5,416 bases of DNA from a virus. Lineage: Duplodnaviria; Heunggongvirae; Uroviricota; Caudoviricetes. Positions 2 through 5,416 of this stretch are shown here, one piece after another. The notes below the pieces were generated by a model. That model made no database searches, was not told where the DNA came from, and saw only the letters and a list, made by a program, of their open reading frames with translations. The DNA lies in IMG/VR virus record IMGVR_UViG_2698536485_000013. One strand, given 5' to 3'. The number at the start of each line of letters is the position of its first letter. Within the stretch, counting starts at the first letter, position 1. A program made the position numbers and the translations under genes.

Positions 2-808
2 GTCTCCAGGATTTCCGGGGCGGTTCAACAATCAATTGCAAATTATATCAGCCCAATGGCCCAGCTATGGGAGTTAGCTTCATCACGTTACCACGATGCA
101 CCAGAAAGGGCGCTCTCCTCCTGGCGAGGGCATAGGCTTGATGTGGCACAAAGTAGAGAGAGCTATGAGGCATTTTCTAACAAAGAGCTATTGCAGGTGT
201 TGCAAGTATTTTCCGGTAATTCAGCAGAAAACAAAGAAATGATAGCTTTGTGTCTTATCGGTGCTTATACAGGTATGCGGATCAATGAGATAGCAAGTCT
301 CACAATAGACGATGTGAAAGAGATCGAAGGTGTGCTGTGTTTTGAAATCACACAGGGAAAAACGAAAGCTGCGGCACGTGTTGTGCCTGTGCATAGCCTT
401 ATCACTCCATTGGTGTTATCTCTTCGTGAAAAGCCTCACAATGGCTTTTTGTTCTATCACGCCAGCATTACAGAGCGTGCTGATGGTAAACGTTCCACGT
501 GGCACACGCAGAGATTTACAAGAGCTAAACGAAAGGCTTTAGGGGAAAAGGGAACAGAAAGGAAGGTGTTTCATTCTCTGAGACACGGAGTAGCACAGCT
601 TCTTGATCGAAATCAAATTCCAGAAGACAGGATCGCCCTTCTCCTGGGCCATACACGCGGCAATACAGAAACATTCCGCACATATAGCAAGAATGCAGCT
701 TCTCCAGTAGAGCTTAAAAAATATATTGAGCTTCTACGCTACCCTGAAATAGAGAAAGGCTTATCAATCAATAAAAAATCAAATTTAAGGCGTAAAACAA
801 CGCCATAG
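2..808 (+). CDS. int: Tyrosine-type site-specific recombinase (phage-type integrase), C-terminal catalytic portion; 5'-partial, the reading frame is open to the left window edge
   Basis: The translation carries the tyrosine-recombinase catalytic signature in the right order: box I Arg (AYTGMRINEI), a Lys-containing beta-turn (TQGKTKAAARVVPV), HxLRH (FHSLRHGVAQLL), LLGH, and a C-terminal Tyr (TETFRTYSK). The frame containing ATG 56 has no stop between position 2 and 56, and 250 aa is short for this family, so the N-terminal arm/core-binding region probably lies upstream of the window. Stop is TAG at 806-808. Confidence 0.88.
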   Translation, partial: VSRISGAVQQSIANYISPMAQLWELASSRYHDAPERALSSWRGHRLDVAQSRESYEAFSNKELLQVLQVFSGNSAENKEMIALCLIGAYTGMRINEIASLTIDDVKEIEGVLCFEITQGKTKAAARVVPVHSLITPLVLSLREKPHNGFLFYHASITERADGKRSTWHTQRFTRAKRKALGEKGTERKVFHSLRHGVAQLLDRNQIPEDRIALLLGHTRGNTETFRTYSKNAASPVELKKYIELLRYPEIEKGLSINKKSNLRRKTTP

Positions 809-815
809 ACGCAAT

Positions 816-855
816 AAAGAGGCTCCAACATAGATTGGTAGCCTCTTTTATAATT
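816..855. terminator. Putative bidirectional intrinsic terminator between convergent int and the minus-strand operon
   Basis: Seen in sequence: 816-824 AAAGAGGCT pairs with 840-848 AGCCTCTTT, and the inner 825-828 CCAA pairs with 835-838 TTGG (one bulged T at 839, 6-nt loop). On the + strand it is followed by TTTTATAATT; on the - strand the A-tract at the stem base supplies the U-run. It sits 8 nt after the int stop and about 40 nt after the 237-aa gene stop. Confidence 0.5.
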
Positions 856-889
856 ACATCGTTACAGAGCGTTTTAGAGGCGTTTACGG

Positions 890-1603
890 CTATTCCTGTT
901 TAAAGGCAGGAGTAATAGTGTCTTCACCTTCACTACTTGATTTTTCAGTGTTAACACGTTTTTTCATATTAGCCCCGATGTTCTTAGATGGCTGTGTTTT
1001 GATAGCTACAGTGTTCACAGTGCCATAAGAAACTAATCTTATTTGCTCAAAGCTAAGATCAAATACCAGGGATTCGCTTGCCTCTTCTGTGTATTCGATT
1101 CCTGTTAAAACAACGTTCTCAAAAGTTTTATTTTCTGTAACAAGAAGAAAAGGCTGTCTACTGTCCATAATCTGATTCAGGTAGTCGATAGCTAATGATC
1201 TTCTGTTCCCGTTCACCCCTGCACTCTTTAACAAGCCAGGATCGCTTTTAATCGGTGTTTCAGTGATCCTTCCTTTAAGAGAAAACTTATTGTTTTTAAT
1301 TTGAACGTGATCAGACACAGTAGCACCATTTTCTACGGGGTAGCTTGTAACATCTGCCGAACGTCTCACGTTCACATCGTCAACACTATCAAAGGCCAGT
1401 GCCATATAATTTTCATAAACATCATTGCCAGAAGATGCCAAGCCACTGGTAACAATAGCAAATCCGTTCTCTCCTTTTGTTTTATTGGCTTTGCTATTTT
1501 CGTTTTTTGTAGAGTTTATATCTTGTTCTGCTTTGTAAACAGCCTGAACGTGTTGTTCTGGAGTATTTGCTGCACGTATGGTTAAAATCCCGGCGGTCGC
1601 CAT
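890..1603 (-). CDS. Hypothetical protein, 237 aa, last gene of the minus-strand operon; function unknown
   Basis: ATG at 1603-1601, with AAGGAAA about 13 nt upstream on the minus strand. Long uninterrupted ORF; the start lies 34 nt downstream of the 609-aa gene stop, same strand. The protein is rich in Ser/Thr/Asn/Val with a Lys-rich N-terminus and acidic C-terminus. No catalytic motif recognised. Confidence 0.7.
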   Translation of the reverse strand: MATAGILTIRAANTPEQHVQAVYKAEQDINSTKNENSKANKTKGENGFAIVTSGLASSGNDVYENYMALAFDSVDDVNVRRSADVTSYPVENGATVSDHVQIKNNKFSLKGRITETPIKSDPGLLKSAGVNGNRRSLAIDYLNQIMDSRQPFLLVTENKTFENVVLTGIEYTEEASESLVFDLSFEQIRLVSYGTVNTVAIKTQPSKNIGANMKKRVNTEKSSSEGEDTITPAFKQE

Positions 1604-1637
1604 AATAATAATTTTCCTTGTAATGTTATGGCGGGAA

Positions 1638-3467
1638 TTACCCGCCGTTGGATTGTCCTGATAAGCTGGTTAATGTTAATGATTTCAAGAAGCTATCCCG
1701 ACTTGCTCTCGCTGTAAAATCCACATAATCGCTTAATCTTGATGTGTCTGAATTAATAGTAAGAGGAACCTCTGTTACCACTTCAAATGTAGGATTCAGA
1801 TTAAACACAGGAGATAAATTATAAGCCGGAGTTGTCATTGCAAGATTATTTAAAGCACCCTGTTTGAGATTGGTTATCGGTGCTTCGCTGACTGACATTT
1901 TTACATCTGACACAGAAGAATTATCATCGAAAAGCAATCCCTTAATCGTGTTAAAGAGAGAATGACTATTATCAGGTGTAGTTGTTGCAGTGCCAGCGCC
2001 TTTATATTGGTCAGGAACGAGATTAGAAAGATGCTGTTTCATCCCTTCATTGCTTAATGGCGGTGCATCACCTAAATTTTTCTGAATAGCATCTGTCTTA
2101 TCATCATTACGATTAAACCAGTTTACAATCTTCATAATAGCTTCAAAGAGACTTCCTACAGCTTCTCCCAGCTTCGTAAAATACGGAGTGAGATTAGAAA
2201 GGTTTTTCAAAAACTCTTCCGTTACTTTTGGATCGAGAGATTTCATAAAGCCGTCTACGAATGCTACTTGTCTTGCATCAGAAAGCTGTGAAAGCTGTCT
2301 GTTTAGTTCTCTGAATTTAACAATAGAGTCTTGCTGTGTTTCTGTTAGCCATTTTCCAGAGGCTTTTTGCTGATTAATACTTTCTTGTACATCTTTAACG
2401 GAACGTTGCCAATATTTTGACGTAAGCATCAAATCATCGCCCAGGTCTTCTAAACGTTGTCCAATTTGGGAGTCTGAAAACCCTTTTTTCATCATTCCAT
2501 TAACAGCCTTAGAAATTAATCCAGCCGGATTATCAGCAAATTTTTTAAGGTCGCTTTTGTTAATAACACCGATGTTTAGAAGTTCATTAATAGCATTATC
2601 ACCGCCTTTCCATTCAGATTTTCCGGTTTTCTTGTCTTTCACCAATTCAGCTTCACTGTAGGATTTTGCGGCACGTTCCCTAACATCTTTCATCTGATCC
2701 AGGTATTTCCTAGCCCCTTGATCACCCATCATAGAGTCAACGCCGTTTCTATAGGCCCATTCTGTAATGTTGTACATCTGGTTAACGTCTACACCGCCAA
2801 GCCTTGCACGTTGAATTAGCTCTCCTTGTGTCTCAGCATTGGCAAAACTATTAGCCATAAATTCACCGGTTTTACTAACCGCCATCACGCCAGCAGCAGC
2901 CGTAGCGCCTCCAAATAACAGAGCGCCCATAGTGGCGGAATTCCCTGATCCTCCCTTAACGGGGGCTAATTGAACTTTTCTGTTGCCATTAATCTTACGT
3001 TGTTGTTGTTGTAAGCGTTTCATCTGGCTATTCATACGTGCAAGCGAGATAGCCCCTTGCTCATATTGTTTCGCTATCTCTCTAGCCTGTGCAATAGCTT
3101 TGTATTGTTCCGCTACAGAGAGGCGGTGCATTGCACTGATAGAGCTTGACACATCAAGGAGCTTTAATTCTGCTTTCTCTTTACGTGCTGCTATTTGTTG
3201 CTGTTGCCTTGCCTGTGCTCTTGCTGCGGCAGCTTGTGCTCTTTGATTCTGTTTTTCTGTTTTGGCTTTCTGTTGAGCAATCTTATCTACTTCGCTTTGT
3301 GCTTTCTTATAGCCTTTAGTGACATTATCAAATCTTAATTTAGCTGGCTTGATGTTTTCTGCGAATTCCTTTAAGCCTGTAATAGAGTCTTTCGCTTTTT
3401 TCAAGCTGTCTTTATCTACACTAAATGTAACTGTGTTCTTAATTTTAGAAGTGTTAATTTCTAACAT
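1638..3467 (-). CDS. Hypothetical large protein, 609 aa: N-terminal Lys/Gln/Ala-rich predicted coiled coil, a Gly/Ala-rich hydrophobic segment, then a large C-terminal domain; function unknown
   Basis: ATG at 3467-3465 preceded by AAGGGGA about 8 nt upstream; stop TAA at 1640-1638. Residues ~55-165 (nt ~2970-3300) are heptad-like and charged (AQQKAKTEKQNQRAQAAAARAQARQQQQIAARKEKAELKLL, RLQQQQRKIN). Residues ~172-200 (nt ~2868-2954) read GGSGNSATMGALLFGGATAAAGVMAV. The start lies 18 nt downstream of the 66-aa gene stop. Confidence 0.8.
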   Translation of the reverse strand: MLEINTSKIKNTVTFSVDKDSLKKAKDSITGLKEFAENIKPAKLRFDNVTKGYKKAQSEVDKIAQQKAKTEKQNQRAQAAAARAQARQQQQIAARKEKAELKLLDVSSSISAMHRLSVAEQYKAIAQAREIAKQYEQGAISLARMNSQMKRLQQQQRKINGNRKVQLAPVKGGSGNSATMGALLFGGATAAAGVMAVSKTGEFMANSFANAETQGELIQRARLGGVDVNQMYNITEWAYRNGVDSMMGDQGARKYLDQMKDVRERAAKSYSEAELVKDKKTGKSEWKGGDNAINELLNIGVINKSDLKKFADNPAGLISKAVNGMMKKGFSDSQIGQRLEDLGDDLMLTSKYWQRSVKDVQESINQQKASGKWLTETQQDSIVKFRELNRQLSQLSDARQVAFVDGFMKSLDPKVTEEFLKNLSNLTPYFTKLGEAVGSLFEAIMKIVNWFNRNDDKTDAIQKNLGDAPPLSNEGMKQHLSNLVPDQYKGAGTATTTPDNSHSLFNTIKGLLFDDNSSVSDVKMSVSEAPITNLKQGALNNLAMTTPAYNLSPVFNLNPTFEVVTEVPLTINSDTSRLSDYVDFTARASRDSFLKSLTLTSLSGQSNGG

Positions 3468-3485
3468 TTAAAATCCCCTTATTAA

Positions 3486-3686
3486 TCATTTTTTACCACC
3501 TTCTTTGCTTAAGAAATGGTGTAGAGCCTGATCAATACTCTCGTTTAGTCTGAACATACGGGCTTTTACTCCTTCATATGGAACATCTAAGAGAGAACAT
3601 AGATATTTCAGATTTAACAAGCCTCTAGAATCATTAGCATCTAAATGTACGTGTACACCATTTTTTGATTTCAGAATCACTTCCAT
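3486..3686 (-). CDS. Small hypothetical protein, 66 aa, tightly linked upstream of the 609-aa gene
   Basis: ATG at 3686-3684 with GAGAGGTGA about 7 nt upstream on the minus strand; stop 18 nt before the 609-aa gene start. Confidence is lowered by the short length and lack of recognisable motifs. Confidence 0.55.
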   Translation of the reverse strand: MEVILKSKNGVHVHLDANDSRGLLNLKYLCSLLDVPYEGVKARMFRLNESIDQALHHFLSKEGGKK

Positions 3687-3710
3687 ATTTTAATCACCTC
3701 TCAAAATTTA

Positions 3711-3755
3711 AAAATAAATAAAAAAAGGCGAAGCGTGTTATTCACGCCACGCCTC
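3711..3755 (-). terminator. Putative intrinsic (rho-independent) terminator or attenuator on the minus strand, between the 342-aa gene and the 66-aa gene
   Basis: Seen in sequence, read on the minus strand: GC-rich interrupted hairpin (3726-3730 AGGCG with 3751-3755 CGCCT; 3733-3737 GCGTG with 3743-3747 CACGC; loop TTATT), immediately followed by a T-rich run (reverse complement of 3711-3725 = TTTTTTATTTATTTT). It begins 18 nt after the 342-aa gene stop. Confidence 0.55.
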
Positions 3756-3772
3756 TATTACACGTTAAAATA

Positions 3773-4801
3773 TTATTTAACAGTGATTTGAACGGAGAAG
3801 CCAACGCCGTGGTTTACAACCATCTGGCTATTCTCTGTAACAACGTTAACAGCATCACCACGAGAAGATTCATAGCTGTAGCTATACACCTCAGCAGGAG
3901 CGGCATTGATCAGTTCAAAGGTGCTGGAAGCAGCCCCGTAGATGTTCTGATATACATTAGAGCCTTTAGCAAACTTCGGAACCGCTACAGCGTCTGCGGT
4001 CATATGTGCAAGGTGTAGCGGATCTACCAGTTTAACAACATCAATGTTAGTTCCTGGAATAGTGAACGCTGTCACCCCCGGTAGCAGGTCACGACGCTGA
4101 TACACAACGTTCCCTTCTTCCAGTGGGCTTACATACTGGAATGCGTTTGCCATACCCGCAGAGAATCGAATTGCAGAGAAGGCTTCAGGTTTACAGAACA
4201 CAACAACACGCTCAATGGTTGCAGCCTGTTTTTGTGCCTTAGCAATCATATCCGTAGCAATCTGATCAAATTCTTTAAAAATCTTCGTGGTGTCAGTGCT
4301 GGAAGCGTTCACAGTGGCTTTCATAGCTGATACGTTAAACAGCTTGCCCCATTCGATAAGAACATCATCAGTTTTAGGCGTGTAAGTTTTACCGCTAAAC
4401 AGAGATGCAGCCAGCACGCTCTCTTTTGTACGCTGATACGCTACGTGGTGTTTAGCAACATAGTCAGCATAGATATCAGTGAGTGTTTCCTGAAAATCAG
4501 TGCCAGGCTTACGCTTGCCTTGAACATCAGAAGGACGGATCACATCTTCACGAAGAAAATACGGGATTTCAATAAGCCATTCTTTACCTTGTTCTCGCTT
4601 AGTAACGTTGTGTTCAGAAGAGAAACGAGAGGTTTCTTTGTTAAAGAGAGATTCGTTGCTTTCGACAAGCTGGGAAACAGCTACTTTATGAGAACTAACG
4701 CCCACCGGATCAGTGAAGTCGAGGGTAGAGAGCAGAAAGTTACGCGTGCTGTGTGTCTGGAAAAGCGGAGCTAAATCAACGTAATCATTACCTAGAATCA
4801 T
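3773..4801 (-). CDS. Hypothetical protein, 342 aa, second gene of the minus-strand operon; function unknown (structural versus enzymatic not resolvable from sequence)
   Basis: ATG at 4801-4799 preceded by AAAGGAA about 7 nt upstream; long clean ORF, with only a 15-nt gap to the upstream gene remnant. Followed by the terminator-like hairpin. C-terminal third is rich in beta-formers (Val/Tyr/Ser/Thr). Confidence 0.8.
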   Translation of the reverse strand: MILGNDYVDLAPLFQTHSTRNFLLSTLDFTDPVGVSSHKVAVSQLVESNESLFNKETSRFSSEHNVTKREQGKEWLIEIPYFLREDVIRPSDVQGKRKPGTDFQETLTDIYADYVAKHHVAYQRTKESVLAASLFSGKTYTPKTDDVLIEWGKLFNVSAMKATVNASSTDTTKIFKEFDQIATDMIAKAQKQAATIERVVVFCKPEAFSAIRFSAGMANAFQYVSPLEEGNVVYQRRDLLPGVTAFTIPGTNIDVVKLVDPLHLAHMTADAVAVPKFAKGSNVYQNIYGAASSTFELINAAPAEVYSYSYESSRGDAVNVVTENSQMVVNHGVGFSVQITVK

Positions 4802-4816
4802 TTATTATTCCTTTTA

Positions 4817-4998
4817 TTAAGAAGTGAAAACAGAATGGAACCCTTCAAGCTGAAAGCCTTTTTTAATTAATGCTGTTTTTGCTGCTTCACTTACAGCATT
4901 CAGGGCATCAGCTTTGATGCATACAAGCCCAGCATTGCTACGTAGCACATCTACAGGCTTGTTTTCCCCAGCCGTTACAAATTCACTCAGAACAACAT
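4817..4998 (-). pseudogene. 3' remnant (~59 codons) of the operon's 5'-proximal gene, interrupted by the IS3 insertion
   Basis: The minus-strand frame is open from the IS3 junction (4999) down to TAA at 4819-4817 and continues into IS3 sequence. The only start in the ORF track (5014) lies inside the IS3 terminal repeat, so it is fortuitous. Tight 15-nt spacing and an RBS for the next gene support a real, formerly longer gene. Confidence 0.5.
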
Positions 4999-5037
4999 TG
5001 ATCTTACCCAGCAATAGTGGACACGCGGCTAAGTGAG
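4999..5037 (+). repeat. IS3 left terminal inverted repeat (IRL), approximate extent
   Basis: Established knowledge: the IS3 terminal inverted repeats are about 39 bp and begin with 5'-TG. The exact inner boundary is not verifiable here because the right end is outside the window. Confidence 0.6.
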
Positions 5038-5063
5038 TAAACTCTCAGTCAGAGGTGACTCAC

Positions 5064-5363
5064 ATGACAAAAACAGTATCAACCAGTAAAAAACCCCGTA
5101 AACAGCATTCGCCTGAATTTCGCAGTGAAGCCCTGAAGCTTGCTGAACGCATCGGTGTTACTGCCGCAGCCCGTGAACTCAGCCTGTATGAATCACAGCG
5201 CTACAACTGGCGCAGTAAACAGCAAAATCAGCAGACGTCTTCTGAACGTGAACTGGAGATGTCTACCGAGATTGCACGTCTCAAACGCCAGCTGGCAGAA
5301 CGGGATGAAGAGCTGGCTATCCTCCAAAAGGCCGCGACATACTTCGCGAAGCGCCTGAAATGA
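5064..5363 (+). CDS. insE: IS3 transposase OrfA (helix-turn-helix DNA-binding and leucine-zipper component)
   Basis: The protein MTKTVSTSKKPRKQHSPEFRSEALKLAERIGVTAAARELSLYESQ...LKRQLAERDEELAILQKAATYFAKRLK matches IS3 OrfA as I recall it. ATG at 5064 has GAGGTGA 5 nt upstream. The ORF track's start at 5055 is an in-frame GTG and is probably not the real start. Stop TGA at 5361-5363. Confidence 0.9.
   Translation: MTKTVSTSKKPRKQHSPEFRSEALKLAERIGVTAAARELSLYESQRYNWRSKQQNQQTSSERELEMSTEIARLKRQLAERDEELAILQKAATYFAKRLK
5326..5363 (+). promoter_or_regulatory. Probable programmed -1 ribosomal frameshift region of IS3 (A-AAG slippery motif near the orfA 3' end, upstream of the orfA/orfB overlap)
   Basis: Seen in sequence: CAA AAG at 5325-5330 in the orfA frame, followed by GC-rich sequence and the ATGA overlap. 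Established knowledge: IS3-family elements make the OrfAB transposase by -1 frameshifting. The exact slip site is assigned from memory and is not verified. Confidence 0.4.
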
Positions 5364-5416
5364 AGTATGTCTTTATTGAAAAACATCAAGCTGAGTTCAG
5401 CATCAAAGCAATGTGC
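5360..5416 (+). CDS. insF: IS3 transposase OrfB (DDE catalytic component), first 19 codons only; 3'-partial at the window edge
   Basis: ATG at 5360-5362 overlaps the orfA stop (ATGA) in the -1 frame and encodes MKYVFIEKHQAEFSIKAMC, the recognisable N-terminus of IS3 OrfB. Confidence 0.85.
   Translation, partial: MKYVFIEKHQAEFSIKAMC

Follow-up and report, generated by a model that had tools for sequence, protein, structure and literature searches.

The known phage satellites interfere with their helpers. The 11.6-kb genome of satellite P4 is carried in a T=4 capsid, and the capsid-forming phage-inducible chromosomal islands (cfPICIs) have a full head and packaging module, with a PF05065-type major capsid protein (MCP), protease, portal, head-tail connectors and small terminase subunit (TerS), and no tail genes. 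The phages of the Stephanstirmvirinae, which include phi92 and phAPEC8, are virulent and not known to lysogenise. The PLE, elements that resemble phage-inducible chromosomal islands, remodel the coat protein of their helper with a scaffold, TcaP (PMC10945586). The subject of the present analysis is a stretch of 5,416 nucleotides of viral DNA (IMG/VR record IMGVR_UViG_2698536485_000013; hereafter the window, always meaning the whole stretch), in which an AT-rich operon with capsid and tail genes meets an insertion sequence (IS). The compositional step in the window is the junction of two mobile elements that differ in origin: positions 28-4998 almost certainly belong to an AT-rich integrative element of 12.5 kb in thrW, a tRNA-Thr gene of Escherichia coli, and positions 4999-5416 to an IS3 element of host-like composition. 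Judged by its genes, the AT-rich island looks like a member of an undescribed family that fits the general structural criteria of a phage satellite, with mobilisation being putative.

The window matched the chromosome of E. coli 13E0725 (locus L001) with 100% identity and is situated there between paoD/yagP' and thrW-proA. An IS-free copy of the island in strain Res13-Lact-PEB08-01 (locus L002) was used as the reference for the intact genes. In this copy 20-bp direct repeats (ATGGTGCCGATAATAGGAGT) lie 12.5 kb apart, one at the 3' end of thrW and the other just past the integrase gene, and the island thus has both an integrase and attachment (att) repeats. The intact integrase has 425 aa (L002 19506-20783) and consists of an N-terminal DUF6538, a SAM-like domain and a catalytic domain. 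A resolvase and a small open reading frame (ORF) adjoin thrW, and the region beside the tRNA gene holds variable cargo. The features of the window are as follows.

1-27, no strand assigned: terminal 27 bases of a second IS3-family element, which splits the integrase gene
28-808, plus strand: 3' part of the integrase gene, about 250 codons, tyrosine integrase (PF00589, E = 1e-17)
890-1603, minus strand: predicted tail tube initiator (Dit-like), 237 aa (PF21821, E = 3e-29)
1638-3467, minus strand: predicted tape measure protein (TMP), 609 aa (phrog_16051, E = 9e-54)
3486-3686, minus strand: 66-aa protein, immediately upstream of the TMP gene, in the slot of phi92 gp133
3732-3748, minus strand: intrinsic-terminator-like hairpin with a T-run, found by a terminator scan just past the stop of the capsid gene and at the same place in L002
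3773-4801, minus strand: predicted MCP, 342 aa (Phage_cap_E, PF03864, E = 6e-14)
4817-4998, minus strand: C-terminal half of a 120-aa gene directly upstream of the capsid gene, cut by IS3
4996-4998, no strand assigned: CAT, left copy of the 3-bp target-site duplication of IS3, from the comparison of L001 with L002
4999-5416, plus strand: left 418 bases of IS3, among them the left inverted repeat (TGATCTTACCCAGC...) as well as orfA (start annotated at 5064, stop at 5363)

The G+C content was computed exactly for each segment, and 60-nt and 200-nt tiles, G+C at third codon positions (GC3) and relative synonymous codon usage (RSCU) were calculated besides. Positions 890-4998 had 40.5% G+C and positions 4999-5416 48.6% (chi-square p = 0.0017), which is a modest step and barely seen beside the capsid gene with its 45%. 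The first-pass annotation, made from hand counts, had the direction of the step right, as the exact counts confirmed, but not its size, both extremes having been overstated. The 237-aa and 609-aa genes, put at 32-38%, had 39.4% and 40.1% overall, and IS3 orfA (5055-5363, plus strand), put at 55-57%, had 50.8%; the estimate of 45-47% for the 342-aa gene agreed with the exact 45.0%. The hand counts went astray because single 60-nt tiles span from 27% to 58% inside these genes. The 66-aa gene had 34.8% G+C. The integrase fragment had 43.6% over 28-889 (43.6-44.4% for the part at 28-808), and the low-G+C block thus extends to the left of position 890. At its other end the physical boundary coincides with the left inverted repeat of IS3 (4998/4999) and not with the start of orfA. 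The TMP gene itself was uneven, the middle (2601-3300) having 45.7% G+C, the C-terminal part 37.5% and the 5' end 31.1%. This rise at 2601-3300 is an effect of amino acid composition (an Ala/Gln/Arg-rich coiled coil and Gly-rich segments) and no recombination boundary.

The stronger contrast was that between the operon and the host, the operon being 10-13 points lower in G+C than the flanking host DNA. The 200-nt tiles of the operon had a mean of 40.4%, and those of the core DNA on the flanks (25.7 kb, from the same strain) one of 52.6% (Mann-Whitney p = 1e-9); a host mean of about 40% is ruled out by the flanking DNA of about 53%. The AT-richness of the operon relative to the host holds also against the nearby host core genes (40.5% vs 53.4%), and the island is absent from K-12. 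In the IS-free copy the whole 12.5-kb element had 39.2% G+C and its flanks 53-60%. GC3 was 34.6% in the operon, 58.0% in the host core genes and 58.5% in IS3. The codon usage (RSCU) of the operon was hardly correlated with that of the host (r = 0.13) and strongly with those of phi92 (r = 0.81) and T4 (r = 0.77), while IS3, with 53.7% G+C over its whole length, followed the host core genes (r = 0.77). Lying within an att-flanked thrW island and having coliphage-like codon usage, the AT-rich block has been acquired horizontally and is phage-related, as the first-pass annotation had suggested. The low G+C belongs to the element and its AT-rich phage relatives rather than to a foreign bacterium. 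Silencing by H-NS, raised in the same annotation, is plausible for DNA of roughly 40% G+C in E. coli, and it may act on the island.

The IS3 element is complete in the chromosome of 13E0725, where it covers 1258 bp (L001 24999-26256) with the ends TGATCTTACC... and ...GGATCA. It has transposed into the 120-aa gene upstream of the capsid gene. Across the insertion L001 reads ...AACAACAT/TGATC...GGATCA/CATAGA... (slashes at the ends of the element), compared with the uninterrupted ...AACAACATAGA... of L002. The element has the length, the TG...CA inverted repeats, the 3-bp duplication and the frameshifted orfA/orfB of IS3; PGAP annotated an IS3-like element with a programmed frameshift, and orfA matched HTH_Tnp_1 of Pfam. 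Seven genomes span the junction in one piece at ≥99.9% identity, and therefore all have the same IS3 insertion.

The second IS occupies L001 18716-20027 (transposase annotated at 18760-19973), ends in ...GGGGCGGTTCA and is accompanied by a 3-bp duplication, ACA. Its end sequence TGAACCGCCCCGG... is presumably like that of IS629/IS1203. Other genomes match the window from base 26 onward only, and the 5' half of the integrase gene lies beyond the second IS, outside the window. The ORF of 250 aa seen in the window thus represents the 3' half of a gene that has been interrupted, and no deletion product. With IS3 parting the late promoter from the capsid and tail genes and the second IS breaking the integrase, this copy of the island is probably crippled. 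Insertions of about 1.3 kb were found also within the TMP gene in two IMG/VR contigs (L020 and L025 12227-13504), IS3 was inside the MCP gene in one genome (hit H124, NZ_CM130731), and other IS3 positions were seen in hits H8-H12; the island seems to be a repeated target of IS3.

The tail genes connect the island with one group of phages. The 609-aa protein is by homology a tape measure protein, and the 237-aa protein is likewise assigned as a tail tube initiator. The TMP was collinear with phi92 gp134, including both termini: the first 66 aa were 55% identical and the remainder, to the C-terminus, 26%. Counted from the alignment, 31 of the 41 residues encoded by codons 1-41 (3345-3467) were identical to gp134 (76%). 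In the phi92 baseplate gp134 is the trimeric TMP and gp135 the hexameric tube initiator (PMC13450770). The island protein thus has homology to a structurally located TMP, and its gene has the chaperone slot on one side and the tube initiator on the other. The tube initiator was 60% identical to gp135, with a Pfam score of 101.9 bits (cut-off 24.2), and matched the structure 21vq_N with E = 2e-78; also 9cuy_K and Pam3 gp17 were matched.

Phage relatives of the TMP and the tube initiator were found only in the Stephanstirmvirinae (phi92, phAPEC8), which are AT-rich E. coli myophages of roughly 142-153 kb. In a set of 50,697 phage genomes the E. coli-type and the Klebsiella-type TMPs of the island family each matched 134 records, all of phi92/phAPEC8 type. 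The Klebsiella-type TMP showed a reversed pattern, matching phAPEC8-type TMPs over the C-terminal two thirds only, and different lineages seem to conserve different TMP interfaces. The tube initiator of the window was 58-61% identical to the copies in these phages. Those of three other islands (L031, L033 and L046) were 68-70% identical to phi92 and phAPEC8 and 52-53% to the copy of the window, the phi92 and phAPEC8 proteins being 69% identical to each other. The island and phage tube initiators therefore interleave, which points to exchanges with these phages on repeated occasions or to a strong co-adaptation. As the similarity at the DNA level is only about 70%, the exchange was not recent.

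The 342-aa protein is predicted to be an HK97-fold MCP. It matched its Pfam family with 52.3 bits (cut-off 22.9) over profile positions 18-329 of 329, and with a profile of the island family the best solved relative was phi92 gp124 (21uy_N, E = 1e-18, full length). The pairwise identity to gp124 was 22%, and the maximum to any protein of the 50,697 phage genomes about 26%. In the same genomes the 120-aa protein and a 136-aa protein of the island had no match. With MCP, 120-aa and 136-aa proteins all lacking a close phage counterpart, the island is therefore no fragment of any sequenced phage.

The intact 120-aa gene (L002 24798-25160) encodes what may tentatively be modelled as a decoration protein of the beta-tulip type, to which lambda gpD, Sf14 gp33 and phi92 gp123 belong. 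The AlphaFold2 (AF2) model had a mean predicted local distance difference test score (pLDDT) of 76, and its best match was to the decoration chains of Sf14 gp33 (9c2d_P/J, Foldseek probability 0.97), the gene of which is likewise directly upstream of its MCP gene. BLASTP, hhalign (probability 1%) and a PDB profile search found no relationship of the 120-aa protein with phi92 gp123, and tblastn gave no match in phages. The hairpin at 3732-3748 is a probable attenuator between capsid and tail genes, judged by its predicted structure and position. The 66-aa protein that follows was conserved throughout the family at 33-55% identity and had zero nonsynonymous changes in comparison to L002. It showed no similarity to phi92 gp133. 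Its AF2 model (pLDDT 76) consisted of a beta-hairpin and three helices and gave no informative fold match, with a shallow homologue search of nine close relatives behind it.

In Pfam and PHROG scans of all ORFs of the island, the only phage-type virion families were those of the MCP, the TMP and the tube initiator; neither a portal nor a terminase, protease, sheath, tube, baseplate wedge, holin or endolysin was found. The PADLOC and NCBIfam scans of ten island proteins gave no usable match, and an Rfam scan of the whole island, with E up to 1, found thrW alone.

The late unit runs from a promoter through a leader with a terminator to the 70-aa gene, the 120-aa gene, the MCP gene, the hairpin, the 66-aa gene, the TMP gene and the tube initiator gene. 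In the window its genes all run on the minus strand, 15-86 nt apart, and the tube initiator gene is the last. The late promoter is near consensus (TTGACA, 17 nt, TAATAT). The leader (L002 25683-25425, minus strand) is about 200 nt long, and folds more stably than shuffled sequence (z = -5.4). It contains a perfect hairpin of 12 bp (TTATGCATACAT...GTATGCATAA) and ends, right before the first late gene, in an intrinsic terminator. The layout of promoter, leader and terminator is shared by diverged relatives, the sequences of which no longer align, and they were too diverged for a covariation test on the family leaders. By analogy, the leader resembles those of late operons controlled by antitermination, and it may serve as a switch of that kind or as a small RNA.

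In the early unit a sigma-70 promoter close to consensus (TTGACA, 17 nt, AATAAT, with a TG motif) is followed by genes for small proteins, a lambda-O-like replication initiator of 217 aa and three more small proteins. The 217-aa protein matched the replication initiators phrog_270/391. Upstream of the unit is a gene-free stretch of about 2 kb holding 4-5 iterons TAACAGAATTCTGTGGGGGT, and iteron arrays were located in this stretch of each island (L002 29178-29321, L013 19346-19480, L005 5138-5403 and L014 16240-16285). The sequence of the iterons changes with the type of initiator across the family; a Klebsiella element had two distinct sets of four 32-bp repeats. The element thus appears to have a replication module of its own, with an initiator and an iteron origin.

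The family was searched in a collection of 5.8 billion proteins and in GTDB contigs with one genome per species. MCP homologues at 36-98% identity spanned 13 enterobacterial genera or more (Escherichia, Citrobacter, Klebsiella, Enterobacter, Cronobacter, Serratia, Sodalis, Dryocola, Buttiauxella, Kluyvera, Scandinavium, Leclercia and Pluralibacter), and they sit on chromosome-sized contigs where the length allows judging. All the relatives with a named source were enterobacterial except one. This was a 9.4-kb contig (L049, JAEWTL010000083.1) with a 73% identical MCP and typical island genes, from a metagenome-assembled genome (MAG) labelled 'Bacillota bacterium', a label that is most likely a binning error. 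In E. coli, relatives were present in 553 of the 5426 complete genomes, O26 and O111 strains among them. The 604 places were all chromosomal, and the plasmid origin that had been considered in the first-pass annotation found no support.

The members keep one gene order in 38 of 38 loci: p62, p55, a variable initiator, p92, p136, p112, p70, p120, MCP, p66, TMP, tube initiator (in about half) and integrase. The elements examined in E. coli, K. pneumoniae and Serratia had 39-44% G+C, and Enterobacterales genomes have about 50-57%. Elements of 13.8 and 13.9 kb, with att repeats of 22 and 27 bp, occupy tRNA-Gly(ccc) in E. coli and K. pneumoniae, and another island was found beside tRNA-Leu; at least three different tRNA genes are thus occupied. 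The divergence is deep, with identities down to 36% in the MCP and to 23% in the TMP. Between the window and L002 the ratio of nonsynonymous to synonymous substitution rates (dN/dS) was 0.04 in the tube initiator and 0.09 in both the TMP and the MCP, with dS at 0.10-0.20. Because of these low ratios and of the gene order recurring throughout the family, the island is not a decaying prophage.

A second subtype in thrW (L013, NZ_CP032892) has in the MCP slot a gene for a 343-aa protein (13798-14829), diverged to the point of being called hypothetical by PGAP and without a DNA match to the window; the TMP and the tube initiator of this subtype share 59-63% identity with those of the window. Loci L027-L030 join a tail module of the L013 type with a 75% identical MCP, and therefore the modules shuffle between lineages. 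The IMG/VR matches were larger contigs, the identifiers of which suggest that many are prophage calls from isolate genomes. The lengths of metagenome contigs clustered at 12.5-15 kb, which is probably an assembly artefact caused by breaks at the island border. In Res13-Lact-PEB08-01 a P4-like satellite stands in tandem at thrW, between yagP' and the island (L002 11720-19179), with a primase-helicase, an Ogr/Delta fragment, Psu, an integrase of its own and a retron-type reverse transcriptase cargo of 32-37% G+C.

We consider it an evenly poised question whether the island is a satellite, or a satellite-like defence island, of phi92/phAPEC8-type myophages. It has what satellites have in general, being an att-flanked element of 12.5 kb with an integrase, a replication module and an incomplete set of virion, packaging and lysis genes. 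A narrower proposal, possible though a little less probable, is that the tRNA islands of 12.5-14 kb form an undescribed satellite family that replaces only the size-determining parts of the virion, takes the rest from a virulent Stephanstirmvirinae helper and reduces the helper yield. On infection by the helper the island would excise and replicate from its own origin, and read-through of the leader terminator would turn the late operon on. The island MCP and decoration protein would then build a small capsid shell sized for 12-14 kb, and its TMP and tube initiator would be fed into tails made otherwise of helper parts. Portal, terminase, sheath, tube, baseplate and lysis functions would be supplied by the helper. 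By analogy with P4, a genome of 12-14 kb would suit a T=3 or T=4 head. The low G+C and the coliphage-like codons would fit genes that are expressed with, and exchanged with, phages of 38% G+C.

Several observations weigh against a satellite of these phages. Excision, replication, packaging and transfer are all deduced from gene content, and no circular form was found among the 25 whole metagenome contigs, which had no terminal overlap and several of which start inside the tRNA gene. No small terminase subunit and no pac or cos site was recognised in the island, and DNA packaging is therefore left without an explanation; neither was a repressor or an AlpA-type regulator identified there. With an MCP only 22% identical to gp124, co-assembly with the portal and scaffold of phi92 can by no means be taken for granted, and the real helper may be a phage that has not been sequenced. 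The need of a satellite for a TMP of its own has no explanation, and the tube initiator is absent from about half of the family. The decoration protein was called from one confident AF2 model in five and a TM-score of 0.46. Codon usage was rejected as a fingerprint of the helper, T4 (r = 0.77) being almost as good as phi92 (r = 0.81).

Some of these observations would be expected of an island that serves defence alone and is never transferred, its diverged MCP, TMP and tube initiator being poison or decoy subunits that get into, or nucleate, assembly intermediates of an infecting phi92-like phage, abort its virion production and so protect the clonal population. We regard this as unlikely. It would agree with the absence of any recognised packaging gene or site and of circular forms among the 25 contigs, and with variable cargo beside a tRNA gene, as in defence hot-spots. 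Also the clearest phage homology is in those subunits that must fit phi92-type assemblies, the TMP N-terminus being 55% identical over 66 aa and the rest 26%, and the tube initiators 60-70% identical to those of the phages. However, the integrase, att sites, initiator and iterons have been kept, and the occupation of at least three tRNA genes in many genera indicates mobile equipment. A full-length MCP with a decoration-like partner, under purifying selection, suits the building of a shell better, and co-assembly with the phage MCP is unlikely at 22% identity. None of the ten island proteins tested had a PADLOC match. The two readings also overlap, as interference with helpers is part of the repertoire of known satellites.

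It is improbable that the island is a remnant of a cryptic prophage, that is, of a temperate thrW myophage shrunk by deletion, with non-functional capsid and tail genes and an ancestral low G+C. The site is that of the cryptic prophage CP4-6 in K-12, PGAP labels the genes as ordinary phage proteins, and the strain has two IS disruptions in the island, with IS in the MCP or TMP gene elsewhere. But the same minimal, ordered gene set with its own att repeats and a length of 12.5-14 kb was found in E. coli and in Klebsiella, Serratia, Citrobacter, Enterobacter, Buttiauxella, Kluyvera and other genera, with MCP identity down to 36%, and the remnant explanation is disfavoured because independent decay would not converge on one gene set. 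Neither does dN/dS of 0.04-0.09 fit with loss of function. A larger parent prophage was found in none of the 553 E. coli genomes, and likewise in none of the IMG/VR loci (29), metagenome loci (80) or phage genomes (50,697), and the phage relatives of the TMP and the tube initiator are all of virulent types. Finally, a recent import from a low-GC donor outside the Enterobacterales, suggested by the first-pass annotation and by a composition 10-13 points under the flanking host DNA, is very improbable, as the relatives with a named source are all enterobacterial save for the 'Bacillota' MAG contig, as 39-44% G+C is kept in hosts of 50-57%, and as the deep divergence of the family (MCP to 36%, TMP to 23%) indicates long residence in this host group.

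No description of the island was found in the literature on satellites of phi92/rV5-type phages, on capsid islands at thrW/CP4-6 or under the RefSeq protein accessions, nor in PADLOC or NCBIfam; a preprint on small HK97-fold viruses, which came closest, does not deal with it. An AT-rich island beside a host-like IS is routine when taken alone. If the island is a satellite of, or a defence against, phi92/phAPEC8-type phages, it would stand as the first element of the sort for virulent coliphages, and its design of hijacking would be new, with its own capsid protein and tape measure and without portal or terminase. It would then also be a practical variable in phage therapy and biocontrol, since these phages are popular candidates and the island is present in about one tenth of the complete E. 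coli genomes. The thrW 'CP4-6 site' would host several unrelated elements, and capsid or baseplate genes in small islands would not automatically be prophage debris.

Of the elements described, CP4-6 of K-12 occupies the same thrW site and likewise has its integrase at the yagP/paoD end. It was rejected as the same element: the K-12 end has yagJ, yagK, yagL, yagM, ykgV, yagN and intF and none of the capsid and tail genes of the window. No homology was found to any satellite or defence family listed in PADLOC or NCBIfam, nor to the gene sets of PICI or PLE. The cfPICIs are likewise small integrative islands with an HK97-fold capsid protein of their own and with tails to be borrowed from the helper. 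Their gene set differs from that of the island, which has as head genes only an MCP of another family (PF03864) and the decoration-like protein, has two tail-core genes, and in which no portal, protease or TerS was found.

The island resembles P4 in size (11.6 kb in P4), integration at a tRNA gene and, by prediction, autonomous replication, and P4 also has the small capsids that for the island are a proposal. In P4, however, these are made from the helper MCP through Sid and Psu, and P4 is without structural genes. The P4-like set of psu/sid/delta, alpA and primase-helicase was not found in the island; such genes are in its tandem neighbour (L002 11720-19179). The PLE is likewise a chromosomal integrative island, in the same size class of 12-18 kb, with its own integrase and replication module. 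Its partner is a virulent myophage, as would be that of the island, and both are expected to parasitise the virion and to interfere. The difference is that the PLE reshapes the coat protein of the helper by the scaffold TcaP, and the island comes with its own MCP, decoration-like protein, TMP and tube initiator.

The last comparison is that with the phi92 module of gp123 (cement), gp124 (MCP), gp133, gp134 (TMP) and gp135 (initiator). In phi92 these genes are surrounded by, and interspersed with, those for portal, scaffold, connector, sheath, tube, chaperone and baseplate, all absent from the island, which differs also in being integrated, in having an integrase and an origin, and in its 120-aa and 66-aa proteins, which are unlike gp123 and gp133. 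Otherwise the island genes form a syntenic subset of this module, with the MCP 22%, the TMP 26-55% and the tube initiator 60% identical to the phi92 counterparts. Among solved structures, the MCP and the initiator both match the phi92 protein best, and the G+C content of the phi92 module (38%) is close to that of the island operon (41%).

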